Source: Escherichia coli
GTDB lineage: Bacteria > Pseudomonadota > Gammaproteobacteria > Enterobacterales > Enterobacteriaceae
DNA length: 64,000 bases
Reading direction: 5' to 3' (one strand)
NCBI RefSeq assembly: GCF_024298765.1
Contig: NZ_CP101210.1
The position numbers and the translations under genes were made by a program. This document shows positions 4,456 to 37,266 of the stretch, one piece after another; the stretch's first letter is position 1, and each line of letters begins with the position of its first letter. A model generated the notes under the pieces. The model was not told where the DNA came from. It saw nothing but the letters and a program-made list of their open reading frames with translations, and ran no database searches.

Positions 4456-5208
4456 ATGAACCTTGAAGCCTTACCAAAATATTACTCCCCAAAATCTCCA
4501 AAATTGAGCGATGACGCTCCAGCGACAGGCACCGGTTGTTTAACAATTACGGATGTAATGGCAGCGCAGGGGATGGTGCAGTCGAAAGCACCACTTGGGT
4601 TGGCCTTATTTCTGGCAAAAGTTGGTGTTCAGGACCCTCAGTTTGCGATTGAAGGCCTGCTAAATTACGCGATGGCACTGGATAACCCGACATTGAACAA
4701 ATTGAGTGAAGAAATCCGGTTACAGATTATTCCTTACCTCGTGAATTTTGCCTTTGCTGATTACTCCAGGTCTGCGGCAAGTAAGGCTCGCTGTGAGCAT
4801 TGTTCAGGTACGGGATTTTATAATGTATTGCGCGAAGTGGTGAAACACTACAGACGCGGGGAATCTGTAATCAAGGAAGAATGGGTGAAGGAACTATGTC
4901 AGCATTGCCATGGTAAGGGCGAAGTCAGCACAGCGTGCAGAGGGTGTAAGGGTAAAGGGATTGTTCTGGATGAAAAAAGAACCCGGTTTCATGGCGTACC
5001 GGTATATAAGATTTGTGGGCGTTGTAATGGAAACCGATTTAGTCGTTTACCGACCACGCTGGCACGACGTCATGTCCAGAAGCTGGTACCAGACCTGACC
5101 GATTATCAGTGGTATAAGGGGTATGCGGACGTCATTGATAAACTGGTAACAAAGTGCTGGCAGGAAGAAGCATACGCGGAAGCGCAATTGAGGAAGGTGA
5201 CGAGATAA
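4456..5208 (+). CDS. quuQ: late-gene antiterminator Q-like protein with DnaJ-type CxxCxGxG zinc-finger repeats
   Basis: 250 aa, matching the length of Qin Quu[25 protein letters not shown] motifs; immediately upstream of a late promoter/terminator pair. Confidence 0.6.
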
Positions 5209-6852: not shown

Positions 6853-7068
6853 ATGAAATCAATGGATAAGTTAACAACAGGTGTTGCCTATGGCACATCG
6901 GCGGGTAATGCTGGTTTCTGGGCATTGCAGTTACTCGATAAAGTAACTCCGTCACAGTGGGCTGCAATCGGTGTGCTGGGTAGCCTGGTTTTTGGCCTGC
7001 TGACGTATCTGACAAATCTTTATTTCAAGATTAAAGAAGACAGGCGTAAGGCTGCGAGAGGAGAGTAA
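6853..7068 (+). CDS. essQ: holin (lambdoid S-like, dual-start MKSM motif)
   Basis: 71 aa from ATG 6853 with GGTGAGG upstream; dual-start MKSMDKL, a hydrophobic helix region and a charged C-terminus; directly upstream of ydfR and the lysozyme. Confidence 0.7.
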
Positions 7069-7072
7069 TCCA

Positions 7073-7380
7073 ATGACTCAAGACTATGAACTGGTTGTGA
7101 AAGGAGTCCGTAATTTTGAGAATAAAGTTACGGTAACTGTAGCCTTACAGGACAAAGAACGCTTTGACGGTGAAATTTTTGACCTGGATGTCGCCATGGA
7201 CCGTGTTGAAGGAGCTGCGCTGGAGTTTTATGAGGCAGCAGCCAGAAGGAGCGTCCGGCAAGTCTTCCTGGAAGTAGCAGAAAAATTGTCAGAAAAAGTT
7301 GAGTCTTATCTGCAGCATCAGTACTCCTTTAAGATTGAAAATCCTGCCAATAAGCACGAGCGTCCTCATCATAAATATCT

Positions 7381-7384
<4 letters not shown>
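7073..7384 (+). CDS. ydfR: YdfR-like prophage protein (103 aa)
   Basis: ORF between holin and lysozyme, as in Qin; stop overlaps the lysozyme start (ATGA). Confidence 0.5.
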
Positions 7385-8408
<1,024 letters not shown>

Positions 8409-30420: not shown

Positions 30421-33381
30421 ATGGCAGTAAAGATTTCAGGTGTACTGAAAGACGGCACAGGAAAACCGGTACAGAACTGCACAATCCAGCTGAAAGCAAA
30501 ACGTAACAGCACCACGGTGGTGGTGAACACGCTGGCATCTGAAAATCCGGATGAAGCCGGGCGTTACAGTATGGACGTTGAGTACGGTCAGTACAGCGTT
30601 ATTCTGTTGGTGGAGGGATTCCCGCCGTCACATGCCGGGACCATCACCGTGTATGAAGATTCTCAACCCGGTACGCTGAATGATTTTCTCGGTGCCATGA
30701 CGGAGGATGATGCCCGTCCGGAGGCACTGCGCCGTTTTGAGCTGATGGTGGAAGAGGTGGCGCGTAACGCGTCCGCAGTGGCACAGAACACGGCAGCCGC
30801 AAAGAAGTCAGCCAGCGATGCCGGCACATCTGCCCGTGAGGCGGCAACCCATGCGACTGATGCTGCAGACTCAGCACGCGCAGCCAGCACGTCAGCCGGA
30901 CAGGCCGCGTCGTCGGCTCAGTCAGCGTCTTCCAGCGCAGGAACGGCATCAGCAAAGGCCACTGAAGCGGAAAAAAGTGCTGCCGCTGCAGAGTCCTCAA
31001 AAAGCGCGGCAGCTACCAGTGCCGGTGCCGCGAAAACGTCTGAAACGAATGCTTCAGCGTCACAACAATCAGCCGCCACTTCTGCATCCACCGCGACCAC
31101 GAAAGCGTCAGAAGCAGCCACTTCAGCACGGGATGCGTCGGCCTCAAAAGAGGCAGCGAAATCATCAGAAACGAACGCAGCCTCGAGCGCCAGTAGTGCC
31201 GCTTCCTCGGCAACGGCGGCAGCAAATTCTGCGAAGGTGGCAAAAACGTCCGAGACGAACGCCAGGTCTTCTGAAACGGCAGCGGGACAGAGCGCCTCAG
31301 CTGCGGCAGGCTCAAAAACAGCGGCTGCATTATCTGCCAGTGCCGCGTCAACAAGTGCCGGGCAGGCCTCAGCCAGTGCCACCGCCGCCGGAAAATCGGC
31401 AGAAAGTGCTGCATCGTCTGCTTCAACAGCCACAACGAAGGCTGGCGAAGCCACTGAACAGGCCAGCGCAGCAGCGAGTTCTGCTTCCGCAGCGAAGACA
31501 TCCGAAACGAACGCGAAAGCGTCGGAAACCAGCGCAGAATCCTCAAAAACGGCTGCCGCATCGTCAGCCAGTTCGGCGGCGTCATCGGCATCATCTGCGT
31601 CTGCTTCAAAAGATGAGGCGACCAGACAGGCGTCAGCAGCAAAGGGCAGCGCCACGACGGCATCCACGAAGGCGACAGAGGCAGCTGGCAGTGCGACGGC
31701 GGCAGCTCAGAGCAAAAGTACGGCGGAATCCGCGGCAACGCGCGCCGAGACAGCGGCAAAACGGGCAGAGGATATTGCATCCGCCGTGGCGCTTGAGGAT
31801 GCGAGCACGACGAAAAAGGGGATAGTCCAGCTAAGCAGCGCGACCAACAGCACTTCCGAGTCACAGGCGGCAACGCCAAAAGCCGTTAAGGCCGCGTATG
31901 AGCTGGCTAACGGGAAATACACCGCACAGGATGCAACGACAGCACAGAAAGGGATAGTTCAGCTTAGCAACGCGACCAACAGCACATCTGAAATGCTGGC
32001 GGCAACGCCAAAGTCGGTAAAGGCAGCCTATGACCTTGCTAACGGGAAATATACTGCTCAGGACGCTACGACAGCACAAAAAGGAATTGTCCAGCTCAGT
32101 AGTGCAACCAACAGCGCATCTGAAACGCTTGCCGCGACACCGAAAGCAGTGAAAGCAGCTAATGATAATGCGAATGGTCGGGTACCTTCTGCCCGTAAGG
32201 TGAATGGTAAGGCGCTTTCAGCGGATATAACACTGACGCCGAAAGATATTGGTACGCTTAACTCAACAACAATGTCATTCAGCGGTGGTGCTGGTTGGTT
32301 CAAATTAGCAACGGTAACCATGCCACAGGCGAGTTCTGTTGTTTCAATTACGTTGATTGGTGGCGCGGGATTTAACGTGGGGTCACCTCAACAGGCAGGT
32401 ATATCTGAACTTGTTTTGCGTGCAGGTAATGGTAATCCGAAGGGGATTACTGGTGCTTTATGGCAGCGCACATCGACAGGGTTTACAAATTTTGCCTGGG
32501 TCAATACATCTGGTGATACTTACGATATTTACGTTGCAATCGGAAATTATGCGACTGGTGTAAATATTCAATGGGATTATACCAGTAATGCCAGCGTGAC
32601 GATTCATACGTCACCAGCATATTCTGCTAATAAGCCGGAAGGGTTAACGGACGGTACAGTTTATTCACTCTATACGCCATCAGAGCAGTTTTATCCGCCT
32701 GGCGCACCAATCCCGTGGCCATCAGATACCGTTCCGTCTGGCTATGCCCTGATGCAGGGGCAGGCTTTTGACAAATCTGCATACCCGAAACTTGCAGCGG
32801 CTTATCCGTCAGGCGTGATCCCTGATATGCGTGGCTGGACGATTAAGGGCAAACCTGCCAGTGGTCGGGCCGTATTGTCTCAGGAACAGGACGGCATTAA
32901 ATCGCATACCCACAGCGCCAGCGCATCCAGTACGGATTTGGGGACGAAAACCACATCGTCGTTTGATTACGGCACTAAATCCACGAATAACACTGGTGCG
33001 CATACCCATAGTTTAAGTGGCAGCACGAATGCGGCTGGTAATCACAGCCATAGAGATGGCCGTCGATTTAACCCCAGTGTTTTTAAAGATACTTATCAAT
33101 ATGGTTATACAAGCTCAGGTCAAAATACCTGGGGTGTACAAGGCTCAGTAGGTATGTCTACGGGGTGGTTAGCGAATACCAGTACAGATGGTAATCATAG
33201 CCACTCACTGTCCGGCACAGCAGCATCTGCAGGTGCACACGCGCATACTGTCGGTATTGGTGCTCATACGCACTCCGTTGCGATTGGTTCACATGGACAC
33301 ACCATCACCGTTAACGCTGCTGGTAACGCGGAAAACACCGTCAAAAACATCGCATTTAACTATATTGTGAGGCTTGCATAA
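30421..33381 (+). CDS. stf: side tail fibre protein Stf-like
   Basis: N-terminus [37 protein letters not shown]... and C-terminus ...[31 protein letters not shown] resemble lambda Stf; long Ala/Ser-rich low-complexity region and tandem repeats. Confidence 0.85.
31807..32195 (+). repeat. three tandem ~129-132 bp repeats within stf (43-44 aa units, ...[41 protein letters not shown]...)
   Basis: Repeat units begin near 31807, 31936 and 32068; visible at both nucleotide and protein level. Confidence 0.7.
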
Positions 33382-33983
33382 TGGCATTCAGAATGAGTGA
33401 ACAACCACGGACCATAAAAATTTATAATCTGCTGGCCGGAACTAATGAATTTATTGGTGAAGGTGACGCATATATTCCGCCTCATACCGGTCTGCCAGCA
33501 AACAGTACCGATATTGCACCGCCAGATATTCCGGCTGGCTTTGTGGCTGTTTTCAACAGTGATGAGGCATCGTGGCATCTCGTTGAAGATCATCGGGGAA
33601 AAACCGTCTATGACGTGGCTTCCGGCGACGCGTTATTTATTTCTGAACTTGGCTCGTTACCGGAAAATGTCACCTGGTTATCCCCGGAAGGGGAATATCA
33701 GAAGTGGAACGGCACAGCCTGGGTGAAGGATACGGAAGCAGAAAAACTGTTCCGGATCCGGGAGGCGGAAGAAACAAAAAACAGCCTGATGCAGGTAGCC
33801 AGTGAGCATATTGCGCCGCTTCAGGATGCTGTGGATCTGGAGATCGCAACGGAGGAAGAAACCTTGTTGCTGGAAGCCTGGAAAAAGTATCGGGTGTTGC
33901 TGAACCGTGTTGATACATCAACTGCACCGGATATTGAATGGCCAGCCCTACCGTATGGTAAGATATATAAATTCTATAATTAG
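33381..33983 (+). CDS. tfa: tail fibre assembly protein Tfa-like
   Basis: 200 aa starting in a TAATG overlap with the stf stop. Confidence 0.75.
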
Positions 33984-34053
33984 AAGTATCTTTCCATTTA
34001 AGGCTAGGAAGGGGGGCTTGGAAAACGTAAGGAATCTCACACCGAGATTATTT

Positions 34054-34644
34054 TTATATATCAGGCGTCTGATTTTTTGCTTTAGCTCTTAAAATGGTTT
34101 GCCGCGAGGTTTTGAATTCTTGGGCAATGTCACTTATATTTATACCTGACTTAATTTGCTCTAGTACCCTCTGTATTTGTTCATCATTTAACACAGGTGG
34201 GCGACCAAATCGCTTTCCTGCGCCCCGTGCTCTTAATATCCCTGAATGAGTACGCTCAAGTAAAAGGTCTCGCTCAAATTCAGCGACTGCTGAAATTACT
34301 TGCATCATCATTTTTCCAGGTGGACTGGTCAGGTCAACGCCCCCCAATGCTAAGCAATGCACTTTGATACCTGCTTTGGTCAGTTGTTCCACCGTTTTAC
34401 TGATATCCATTGGATTACAACCGAGGCGATCCAGTTTTGTGACAATCAATGCATCACCTCTTTTCAGTCGATCAAGCAACTGGTTAAAACCAGGACGCTC
34501 ACTGGTTGCTGCTGAGCCGCTAATTTGTTCTTCAATTATTTGCTGAGATTTGATGTTAAAACCTGCACTTTCGATTTCCCGACGTTGATTTTTGGTTGTC
34601 TGTTCCAGAGTTGATACCCGACAGTAAGCATAAATTCGAGACAT
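34054..34644 (-). CDS. pin: serine DNA invertase (Pin/Gin/Hin family)
   Basis: 196 aa; N-terminal [12 protein letters not shown] with catalytic-Ser context and a C-terminal HTH; adjacent to tail fibre genes. Confidence 0.8.
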
Positions 34645-34962
34645 AGTGAGATCTTCTATACGAAATTGGTGTACATATCATAATGCATCTCAGAAAATAA
34701 TTTTGATTATTTTTGTACATATTTGTATGTACACGTTCGAAAATAAACGAATGCGTATGCAACCCCGTAATTTTGGTGAGACCCAAAATCGATTTTGTGA
34801 AAAATGGCCTTAACTCGGTTTGTTTTTCGAGTTCCGGGCGGACTCAAGGAAGAAGAATAGTGTTGCGTGTTATTTTAACCAGATTTCAAGTTGTTTGGTC
34901 GTGGAAAAGTGGAGCAAAATGTTGTTAAAGTGGAAAAATGATAAAAAAGTAAGTTTATTATA

Positions 34963-35196
34963 TTACATTTTACCATTTAAATTTTTGTTGTCTTTAAGAA
35001 CTGATATCGCTGTTTGTAATAATTCTTTGTTATCCAGCCATGACTTTTTCTTTATGTTTCCTTCAATGTAATCAAGCAATGTTCTGGTATTGATAGGTCT
35101 TCCCTGTTTTGCTACTTCCACTACAGCATCCCCTAGGATAATTCTTACTTCAGGAAGCTGCGCAGGGAACCACTTTAGGGTGTCTTTTGATTTCAT
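34963..35196 (-). CDS. ydfK: YdfK/YnaE-family small prophage protein (77 aa from internal Met)
   Basis: Position next to pin as in Qin; length from Met-12 matches the recalled 77-aa YdfK. Confidence 0.45.
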   Translation of the reverse strand: MKSKDTLKWFPAQLPEVRIILGDAVVEVAKQGRPINTRTLLDYIEGNIKKKSWLDNKELLQTAISVLKDNKNLNGKM

Positions 35197-35982
35197 GAAG
35201 ATATTCCTTAAAATATTATTGATTTTCATTGCGATATTGTATGTCTGATTCAGGATATGTTGACTTATACATCGGTTTTGTCTGGGTTATTGGATATGCC
35301 AATCCCTAATTTTATTAGAGCATGACTAAAAATGCTGAATATGATAAGGAGCGAAGTGATTATCAGTATGCTGTTCATATAGCCTCGAATTAGTAATGTG
35401 TTATATATGATATAGTTGACAATTTTTATCTTGGGTGTTCTTAAAGTTCGTAGATAAACATTGTCGTTTCAGGTATACAGGAATGCTAACAGGTGGCGGC
35501 AAAAATCAGGCGGTTTATGGCGCAAGCTGAAGTGGCAACTGCAAACTATCTTATGCAGAGACTCTACACGGATTGGGTTTAAAAGTATACATAGATAACA
35601 GTTTTTATCTGAAGAAGAAAAATATCAAGGTGATATAGCCTATATGCCTTTGATGCGGAGGAATGAATGTGATGGGAGTGATGTATCTGAATAGTTGAAA
35701 AACCGCAGACACGCCTTATGCAAGAACGTGCTGCGGTTGGCTGGTAAATTTTTCGATAGTGCGAGTATTGAATGATTTCCAGCCGTTATTGATTTTACGC
35801 GTAAATCCATGAAAAAACTACTTATCTGTTGGGGAGTTTTTTTTGGGGCATATATGGGACAGGAATCGGCCCCAGATAGACACTGAGATCGAACTTAGGA
35901 TGCTTTTTAAAAAATGCAACTATCTGAAAAAACCTAGAAAACGCCAAGGAAACCACAGGATGGGAAAAAACACCTGTGAATT

Positions 35983-37266
35983 ATGGATTTCCAGTTATAT
36001 TCGCTCGGTGCAGCGTTAGTGTTTCATGAAATATTTTTTCCTGAATCATCAACGGCAATGGCGTTAATTCTGGCAATGGGAACCTACGGTGCAGGTTATG
36101 TGGCGCGTATTGTCGGAGCATTTATTTTCGGCAAAATGGGCGACAGAATAGGGCGTAAAAAAGTGCTCTTTATTACCATCACCATGATGGGGATCTGTAC
36201 CACCTTAATTGGTGTGTTACCGACCTATGCACAGATTGGTGTTTTTGCACCCATCTTGCTGGTGACGCTGCGTATTATTCAGGGATTGGGTGCAGGTGCG
36301 GAAATTTCCGGTGCCGGTACGATGCTGGCGGAATATGCGCCAAAAGGTAAGCGCGGAATTATCTCCTCATTTGTGGCTATGGGAACTAACTGCGGAACCT
36401 TAAGCGCAACGGCAATCTGGGCCTTTATGTTCTTCATTCTCAGTAAAGAGGAACTGCTGGCGTGGGGATGGCGTATACCGTTCCTGGCGAGCGTTGTCGT
36501 GATGGTCTTTGCTATCTGGTTGCGTATGAATCTGAAAGAAAGCCCGGTCTTTGAGAAGGTTAACGACAGCAACCAACCGACAGCAAAACCTGCACCTGCT
36601 GGTAGCATGTTCCAGAGCAAATCCTTCTGGCTGGCAACAGGACTGCGTTTTGGTCAGGCAGGTAACTCCGGGTTAATTCAGACTTTCCTTGCAGGCTATT
36701 TAGTACAGACGTTATTGTTTAACAAAGCAATTCCAACAGATGCATTGATGATCAGTTCGATTCTCGGCTTTATGACCATTCCGTTCCTTGGTTGGTTATC
36801 CGATAAAATTGGTCGCCGGATCCCGTATATTATTATGAATACCTCTGCGATTGTGCTGGCGTGGCCAATGCTTTCTATCATCGTAGATAAAAGCTATGCC
36901 CCGAGCACCATTATGGTTGCACTGATTGTGATTCATAACTGTGCGGTGCTGGGATTATTTGCTCTGGAAAACATTACCATGGCAGAAATGTTCGGCTGTA
37001 AAAACCGCTTTACCCGGATGGCTATTTCAAAAGAAATTGGTGGTCTTATCGCTTCCGGTTTTGGTCCTATCCTGGCGGGTATTTTCTGCACCATGACGGA
37101 ATCCTGGTATCCGATCGCCATTATGATCATGGCATATTCAGTGATTGGTTTAATCTCTGCGCTGAAAATGCCAGAAGTGAAAGACCGTGATTTAAGTGCG
37201 CTGGAAGACGCTGCGGAAGATCAACCGCGTGTTGTAAGAGCTGCGCAACCTTCCAGAAGTCTTTAA
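35983..37266 (+). CDS. ydfJ: MFS (metabolite:H+ symporter family) transporter YdfJ, N-terminally truncated
   Basis: 427 aa starting within the conserved WYDF-like region (MDFQLYSLGAALVFHEIFFP), lacking the usual ~25-aa N-terminus; in-frame TGA 6 nt upstream of the ATG. Confidence 0.7.
   Translation: MDFQLYSLGAALVFHEIFFPESSTAMALILAMGTYGAGYVARIVGAFIFGKMGDRIGRKKVLFITITMMGICTTLIGVLPTYAQIGVFAPILLVTLRIIQGLGAGAEISGAGTMLAEYAPKGKRGIISSFVAMGTNCGTLSATAIWAFMFFILSKEELLAWGWRIPFLASVVVMVFAIWLRMNLKESPVFEKVNDSNQPTAKPAPAGSMFQSKSFWLATGLRFGQAGNSGLIQTFLAGYLVQTLLFNKAIPTDALMISSILGFMTIPFLGWLSDKIGRRIPYIIMNTSAIVLAWPMLSIIVDKSYAPSTIMVALIVIHNCAVLGLFALENITMAEMFGCKNRFTRMAISKEIGGLIASGFGPILAGIFCTMTESWYPIAIMIMAYSVIGLISALKMPEVKDRDLSALEDAAEDQPRVVRAAQPSRSL

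Follow-up and report, generated by a model that had tools for sequence, protein, structure and literature searches.

A pin gene beside the tail-fibre genes of an Escherichia coli prophage is probably a resolvase gene left over from a mini Tn3-family element now decayed

A serine recombinase gene of the pin type lies next to the tail-fibre genes of a prophage in an Escherichia coli chromosome, and the question raised by this locus is why such a gene is found there with no fibre segment to invert. The window, i.e., the whole stretch of DNA that was analysed (64,000 nucleotides of contig NZ_CP101210.1), takes in the right-hand end of a lambdoid prophage whose insertion point, ydfJ, is the Qin site of E. 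coli. Gene order on the plus strand is J (26274-29687), lom, stf (30415-33381) and tfa (33381-33983), after which pin (34054-34644), ydfK and ynfT follow on the minus strand; truncated ydfJ and ydfI lie beyond. The 3' end of pin, not its 5' end, points toward tfa. The gene and its two neighbours are as follows:

33381..33983, plus strand: tfa, tail-fibre assembly gene (Pfam Caudo_TAP, 1.6e-44), the sole tfa in the window; a neighbour, outside the element described below
34054-34644, minus strand: pin (PinQ/PinR-type), tnpR-like serine recombinase gene, 196 aa (Pfam Resolvase and HTH_7)
34963..35229, minus strand: ydfK, cold-shock gene, annotated as such in the RefSeq record of an identical genome; it adjoins the element on the side away from tfa

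As an allele of pinQ, the gene is already known. Many avian and human E. coli genomes matched positions 33300-35400 at 100%, and E. coli strain 104 (NZ_CP029164) is one of the strains that carry the prophage. A terminator scan detected no terminator in the gap between tfa and pin, and no tRNA genes were found in the window.

The Gin, Hin, Cin and Pin systems have paired inverted 26-bp crossover sites, an invertible segment at the 5' end of the recombinase gene, and a Fis-dependent enhancer within the 5' part of that gene. The original prediction, made from the letters of the sequence, had described an intact recombinase gene 70 bp past tfa (which ends at 33983) on the opposite strand, a single stf/tfa set, and no recognisable pair of inverted crossover sites. 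All three observations were borne out. The open reading frame (34054-34644, 196 aa) is intact and was matched by the Pfam models Resolvase (1e-37) and HTH_7 (1.8e-11); tblastn gave a single match each for tfa, for the stf C-terminus and for a serine recombinase in 64 kb; and the window was scanned with a gix/pix/hix dyad consensus, for which the best match was 16/20 at 28515, inside J. With this consensus real sites score 18-19/20 and shuffled windows 14-16, and not even a single Gin/Pin-type crossover site stood above chance in the 64 kb. An inverted-repeat search over 28-38 kb, around stf, tfa and pin, yielded pairs at chance level only. No significant DNA similarity to pinE or to its enhancer-bearing 5' region was detected, Fis sites being too degenerate to exclude by sequence. 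The dyad TTCC-N11-GGAA that had been pointed out in the tfa-pin gap is present (33992-34010), but its 4-bp arms carry no statistical weight, and the GGAA arm is part of an AGGAA repeat that flanks one of the terminal repeats described below.

The label of Pin-family invertase, also part of the original prediction, had to be dropped. The window Pin is only 35-37% identical to PinE, the true invertase of e14, as against 70-80% to transposon and plasmid resolvases, and its gene lies inside a mini-transposon remnant. Protein alignment gave 72-80% identity to plasmid- and Tn3-linked resolvases, 60-77% to family members from 80 genomes, and 85% to K-12 PinQ, with which the recognition helix is identical. 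Plasmids are rich in homologues at 70-80% identity (1565 plasmid records, Klebsiella and E. coli foremost), and many of the protein clusters of Pin homologues carry the name 'resolvase'. Among the 80 best homologue loci, scanned with one genome per species, a Tn3-family transposase gene adjoins the homologue in 27, ten of which have the divergent tnpA-res-tnpR layout; the tfa/ydfK context was met at the E. coli locus only. On a Vibrio furnissii plasmid, for example, a 74%-identical homologue is divergent from a 994-aa transposase (DDE_Tnp_Tn3 and DUF4158), and the intergenic region of 159 bp conforms to the classical tnpA-res-tnpR layout.

Against solved structures in the PDB, the window Pin scored 99.5 bits with Gin and 83-85 bits with gamma-delta or Tn3 resolvase. 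A genuine transposon TnpR from Pin's clade has a like profile, with Gin slightly above gamma-delta (97.7 versus 88.7 bits), and because a true TnpR gives an equal profile, these matches are uninformative on invertase function. In the viable phage Tritos the pin gene and ynaE adjoin a different tail-fibre module, and in an Erwinia phage a 57%-identical homologue stands between terminase and portal; as these two contexts show, the resolvase family is not tied to fibre genes. No NCBIfam model attained its cut-off, and a scan of IMG/VR returned close E. coli relatives only, with no further context. As judged from pairwise identities and gene neighbours, Pin groups with the resolvases of Tn3-family transposons and plasmids in one clade, outside that of Gin/Hin/Cin/Pin.

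A unit of 836 bp (34011-34846) was delimited in which two inverted, degenerate 38-bp terminal repeats of Tn3 type enclose a res remnant and pin, without a transposase gene. An intact unit of the same build (repeat, res, tnpR, inverted repeat) is present on the E. coli plasmid pS30-1 (locus L023), with its intact res at about 44.9-45.1 kb of NZ_OY757114. The features used for the comparison are:

34006..34010, unstranded: AGGAA, left copy of a direct repeat of 5 bp that is a putative target-site duplication; abuts the outer GGGG of the terminal repeat; also in K-12-type copies
34011..34046, plus strand: terminal inverted repeat, degenerate, on the 3' side of pin, outer GGGG at 34011; matches the right repeat of pS30-1
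34809..34846, minus strand: terminal inverted repeat, degenerate, on the 5' side of pin, outer end TGAG instead of GGGG; matches the left repeat of pS30-1
34847..34851, unstranded: AGGAA, right copy of the 5-bp direct repeat, directly outside the repeat at 34809-34846
L023 3868-3905: pS30-1 left repeat, 38-bp Tn3-type, GGGGTCAG...GTTAAG
L023 4083-4673: pS30-1 tnpR
L023 4682-4719: pS30-1 right (inverted) repeat

The repeat at 34011-34046 matched the right repeat of pS30-1 at 25/38 positions ungapped and at 27/38 with a 2-nt gap, and the repeat at 34809-34846 matched the left repeat at 27/38; in a shuffle control, run with the left repeat only, the best scores in 20 shuffled windows were 21-24/38. 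Full transposons of Pin's TnpR group have matching terminal repeats at 34-38/38. Global alignment of the window with pS30-1 ran from repeat to repeat (836 versus 852 bp), and homology ended at both outer ends. Tn3-family transposition creates a 5-bp target duplication, and AGGAA flanks were found in both prophage alleles of the element. The AGGAA repeat depends on where the 2-nt gap is placed in the right-hand repeat, with about three placements available, which puts its chance occurrence at a rough estimate of ~0.003.

Prophage copies of the element share one context, and the empty site, reconstructed as a tfa-AGGAA-ydfK junction, had no match in 5426 E. coli genomes. The insertion event is thus inferred rather than observed; it would be old and has become fixed in the phage module. 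The whole is most readily explained as a decayed, non-autonomous mini Tn3-family element flanked by AGGAA, a reading that we consider probable jointly with the resolvase identity and origin of its gene. The mini-element of pS30-1 itself has unmatched 5-bp flanks, TTAGC (L023 3863-3867) and AAGGA (4720-4724), and either underwent rearrangement after inserting or came in by recombination.

In 12 transposon and plasmid relatives, three subsites occupy the region upstream of tnpR, with G(A/T)(C/A)CGAAA as their half-site. Site I reads GACCGAAA-N8-TTTCGTAC, site II reads GTCCGAAA-N14-TTTCGTAC, and site III consists of two direct copies near the start codon; a TATAAT box separates it from site II. 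The 12 intergenic regions were set in ungapped register with the window, measured from the ATG, and the following were predicted from that register:

34658..34758, minus strand: res remnant
34658-34678, minus strand: site III remnant
34677-34682, minus strand: -10-like TATGAT
34689-34718, minus strand: site II remnant, arms GTACAAAA and TTTCTGAG
34735-34742, minus strand: site I right arm, TTTCGAAC
34751-34758, minus strand: site I left arm, lost (3/8 mismatches)
34714..34733, unstranded: perfect dyad TGTACATA-TTTG-TATGTACA, overlapping the site II left arm; the only match in 64 kb

The other subsite arms of the window have 1-2 mismatches each. Conservation within the element is lowest in the stretch that holds the left arm of site I, where 18/40 positions are identical and a 12-nt deletion adjoins. 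By alignment, then, the sequence upstream of pin is a remnant of res and not an intact res, and its subsites are predicted ones. A dyad of the site I type occurred once elsewhere in the 64 kb against 2.6 expected, i.e., nothing beyond chance. The idea that a degenerate site remains was therefore right in respect of this remnant at 34658-34758 upstream of pin, and wrong in respect of the dyad in the tfa-pin gap.

Two further candidates in this region were rejected. The TGTACA dyad upstream of pin could have been a crossover site, and it has no partner in the window and overlaps the site II remnant; the three TATGTACA octamers of the window all fall within 34670-34733 (the dyad and a third copy). 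A junction made by the resolvase, with homology to transposons ending at the centre of site I, was also considered, and was discarded because the repeat-to-repeat alignment continues past that point and the terminal repeat lies further upstream. A 16-nt inverted repeat (34534-34549 and 34687-34702, 94% complementary) was noted that may be due to chance; its first arm falls inside pin (codons 32-37), its second inside the right arm of the site II remnant, which lies upstream of the promoter. Different transposon copies have the central 6 bp of site I in opposite orientations, CGACCG or CGGTCG, the arms on either side being otherwise conserved (loci L033 and L056 versus L036, L037, L052 and others).

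The active site of the protein was compared with that of Tn3 and gamma-delta resolvase, in which the DRLGR motif holds D67, R68 and R71. Two codons are of interest:

34417..34419, minus strand: Cys76, codon TGT, at the R71 position of Tn3/gamma-delta resolvase (DRLGR to DRLGC; CGT to TGT)
34612..34614, minus strand: Ser11, catalytic serine codon, equivalent to S10 of resolvase; retained (alignment to Gin and homologues)

The window Pin does not have the complete Tn3 catalytic set (Y6, R8, S10, D36, R68, R71). Y, R8, S10 and R68 are present; the D36 position is Glu throughout Pin's clade, and the change from R71 to Cys is confined to the prophage lineage. DRLGC is common to the window Pin, K-12 PinQ and phage Tritos, and among family members of different species DRLGR was found in 72 of 75, with DRLGC in the E. 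coli prophage copy only. Of 26 protein clusters retrieved, every one of lambdoid-prophage type has the Cys, and nearly all of plasmid type have DRLGR. The mutants R71A and R71K of Tn3 resolvase showed no detectable recombination and cleaved approximately 1000-fold more slowly while DNA binding was kept (PMC2794168). By extrapolation from these mutants, the window Pin would no longer carry out efficient res x res resolution.

The unit is widespread, and its gene is still under constraint. The unit was present at full length (836 bp) in 2676 of 5426 complete E. coli genomes, with one to three copies in each, and 3372 of the 3378 copies are chromosomal. The window allele (≥99% identity) occurs in ~130 complete genomes and the K-12 type in ~2500; the two alleles are 90% identical in DNA. 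The element is always accompanied by ydfK in lambdoid prophages, and the ydfK-pin spacer is 95% conserved across 10 aligned loci. Between the two prophage alleles dN/dS was 0.36, and between a prophage allele and the plasmid gene 0.15-0.19, values that point to a constraint on pin that is relaxed yet still present. Together with the intact reading frame, a dN/dS below 1 shows that the protein keeps some function. The spacer that carries the element's repeat and res remnant (34847-34962) was ~95% identical across loci while the coding regions of pin differ by 10%, from which it appears that recombination has shuffled pin alleles within a conserved frame. One protein of an E. coli chromosome (P0008, 196 aa) is chimeric, being mostly of plasmid type with DRLGR and of prophage type in its C-terminal tail, which suggests recombination between plasmid-borne and prophage-borne copies.

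Taken as a whole, these comparisons make it probable that pin is the tnpR of a decayed mini Tn3-family element and not a tail-fibre invertase. The element would most likely have transposed to a position just downstream of tfa in an ancestor of the Qin/Rac-type lambdoid phages and would since have been inherited together with the tfa-ydfK prophage end, its adjacency to tfa being an accident of insertion. Decay would then have damaged the outer ends of the repeats, removed the left arm of site I and turned the R71 equivalent into Cys. Several points weigh against this account: both repeats are degenerate, AGGAA hinges on the gap placement, an empty site was found in none of the 5426 E. coli genomes, and the protein has kept some function. 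On this account it is the origin of pin as a transposon relic, and not the loss of a segment, that leaves it without fibre DNA to invert, and no invertible stf/tfa segment is to be expected since pin would never have partnered the tail-fibre genes. The likeliest remaining activity of the protein would be sequence-specific DNA binding, i.e., autoregulation and possibly other regulation or modulation, with recombinase activity at most weak; we infer this DNA-binding, autoregulatory role from the purifying selection on pin and from the overlap of subsites II and III with its promoter.

That pin is instead an orphaned member of the Gin/Pin family, left behind when the second of two ancestral stf/tfa cassettes was deleted along with the crossover sites between which they lay, is extremely improbable. 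Adjacency to stf and tfa, the annotation 'DNA invertase' in several phage records and the ~36% identity to PinE all fit such a history. They are outweighed by the 3' rather than 5' end of pin facing tfa, the lack of any gix/pix-type site in the window, the transposon-type terminal repeats and res remnant that enclose the gene, the different tail-fibre module next to the unit in phage Tritos, the transposon and plasmid resolvases that are its nearest relatives, and the lack of DNA similarity to pinE or its enhancer region. The original prediction had also suggested an orphaned invertase, and it was correct that no partner segment is present here; a lost or separated fibre segment forms no part of the history proposed for this gene, which would be a transposon relic. 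The chances are somewhat better, though still slim, that Pin works as a resolvase on the residual res and resolves dimers of the circular phage genome or promotes deletions: the reading frame is intact, Ser11 and other catalytic residues are kept, subsites II and III are recognisable and pin is under purifying selection, but the left arm of site I, with 3/8 mismatches, falls where the element is least conserved, Cys has replaced the R71 equivalent, and the window holds no second dyad of the site I type.

A more substantial challenge comes from published work on the K-12 protein. Kirigo et al. (NAR 2025, PMC12529663) reported that PinQ overproduced from a plasmid lifted inversion of the e14 P segment from ~30% to 88% and protected against phage T2, the resistance depending on stfP, stfE and e14. 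A PinQ-type protein might on these grounds act in trans as an invertase on the pix-flanked P segment of e14 elsewhere in the genome, changing the tail-fibre-like proteins and blocking T2 adsorption, and the recognition helix shared between the window Pin and K-12 PinQ speaks for extending the effect to the present allele. The suggestion in the original prediction that the invertase acts on a distant site corresponds to this published claim. In the same report (PMC12529663), BLAST showed no inversions in Qin or Rac and deletion of pinE locked the P segment, which indicates that native PinQ by itself does not suffice for the inversion; a catalytic mutant of PinQ, whether of the serine or of another residue, is not reported there, and Tn3 is unmentioned. 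The window Pin moreover has no arginine equivalent to R71, the half-site type predicted for its clade, TGT(C/A)CGAAA, is unlike pix (TTCTCCCAAACC), and the window has no pix-like site. A complete e14 P segment with pinE was found at ≥80% query coverage in 170 of 5426 genomes, an underestimate since isomers of the other orientation fall below this cut-off, as against ~2700 with the pin element.

Action in trans on e14 is compatible with a transposon origin of pin, and we regard it as rather unlikely. Direct inversion of the P segment by PinQ would sit uneasily with the Arg-to-Cys change and is questionable; if the effect is direct, the protein is catalytically active, which would count against the proposed loss of catalysis. 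It is possible, and is put forward tentatively, that PinQ/PinR-type proteins are catalytically crippled descendants of Tn3-family resolvases kept as sequence-specific DNA-binders, the effect on the P segment being indirect, by modulation of PinE or of expression, or by selection. A preprint (10.1101/2022.03.29.486199) ascribes transcriptional repression to PinR. In the literature searched, no paper linking pinQ to Tn3 was found.

The preferred identification, tnpR of a decayed mini Tn3-family element, can be set beside four known systems. PinQ of Qin and PinR of Rac in K-12, which currently go under the names of putative site-specific recombinases or 'DNA invertases', have the same arrangement of tfa, opposite-strand pin, ydfK/ynaE and prophage end at ydfJ, and share with the window 85% protein identity, the recognition helix, Cys at the R71 position, remnants of the terminal repeats and AGGAA flanks; the window gene differs from K-12 pinQ as a diverged allele with 90% DNA identity. 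The TnpR proteins of a Tn3-family group from Vibrio, Pantoea, Shewanella, Xenorhabdus, Kluyvera and others (e.g., NZ_CP040989) are 70-77% identical with equal length and domains, and have a homologous res layout upstream at an equal distance from the start codon and terminal repeats of one family, whereas the window has no transposase, a degenerate site I, degenerate repeats and DRLGC in place of DRLGR. PinE, Gin, Cin and Hin resemble the window Pin as small serine recombinases with an N-terminal catalytic domain, a C-terminal HTH and a GRPP-type arm motif, and differ in their 35-37% identity, in the 26-bp crossover sites and invertible segment that the window lacks, and in orientation, the window gene being turned the other way with respect to the fibre genes; nor does the window pin have similarity to the 5' region of pinE in which the enhancer lies.

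A published precedent for the proposed structure is TIME-RES, a mobile, non-autonomous Tn3-derived miniature element of Pseudomonas in which a resolvase gene and res are the sole cargo (Szuplewska et al. 2014, PMC4133298). Its resolvase has 309 aa and is related to that of Tn5563, and the element was shown to move (PMC4133298). The pin element is like it in having nothing but res and tnpR between Tn3-type terminal repeats and in the 5-bp target duplication usual for the family, putative here, and unlike it in belonging to a different resolvase and repeat lineage, in being decayed and in being probably immobile. It would thus exemplify a mini-transposon turned fixed passenger of phage genomes. 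The point has some practical weight, as pin is present in about half of the complete E. coli genomes and is treated as a Pin-type invertase in annotations and in a recent paper. If the gene is such a relic, the puzzle of an invertase without a segment in Qin/Rac-type prophages vanishes, there is no point in looking for fibre switching at these loci, and the claim of direct catalysis by PinQ needs a catalytic-mutant control in a strain deleted for pinE.

Some minor observations were made on related loci and on the surrounding DNA. In the record of Erwinia phage LS-2018a (CP013974) the 57%-identical homologue at 6880-7606 has a normal DRLGR and is placed between the large terminase gene and DUF4160/portal genes. 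The 120 bp upstream of it contain six (A/T)GTAC(A/T) half-sites and resemble a full three-subsite res within a phage morphogenesis cluster, and a second homologous place is present in the record. In the E. coli window, Rfam matches over 33500-36200 were confined to IS009 inside tfa and two weak ones. The IS009 match (RF02111; 33724-33922, plus strand) covers the full 199-nt model within the 3' part of tfa and scored 224 bits against a gathering score of 117. CssrB, a Shigella sRNA family, gave a weak hit below threshold (28.7 bits, gathering score 76) at 35598-35735 (plus strand), a position flanked by ynfT and the truncated ydfJ and close to the end of the prophage.
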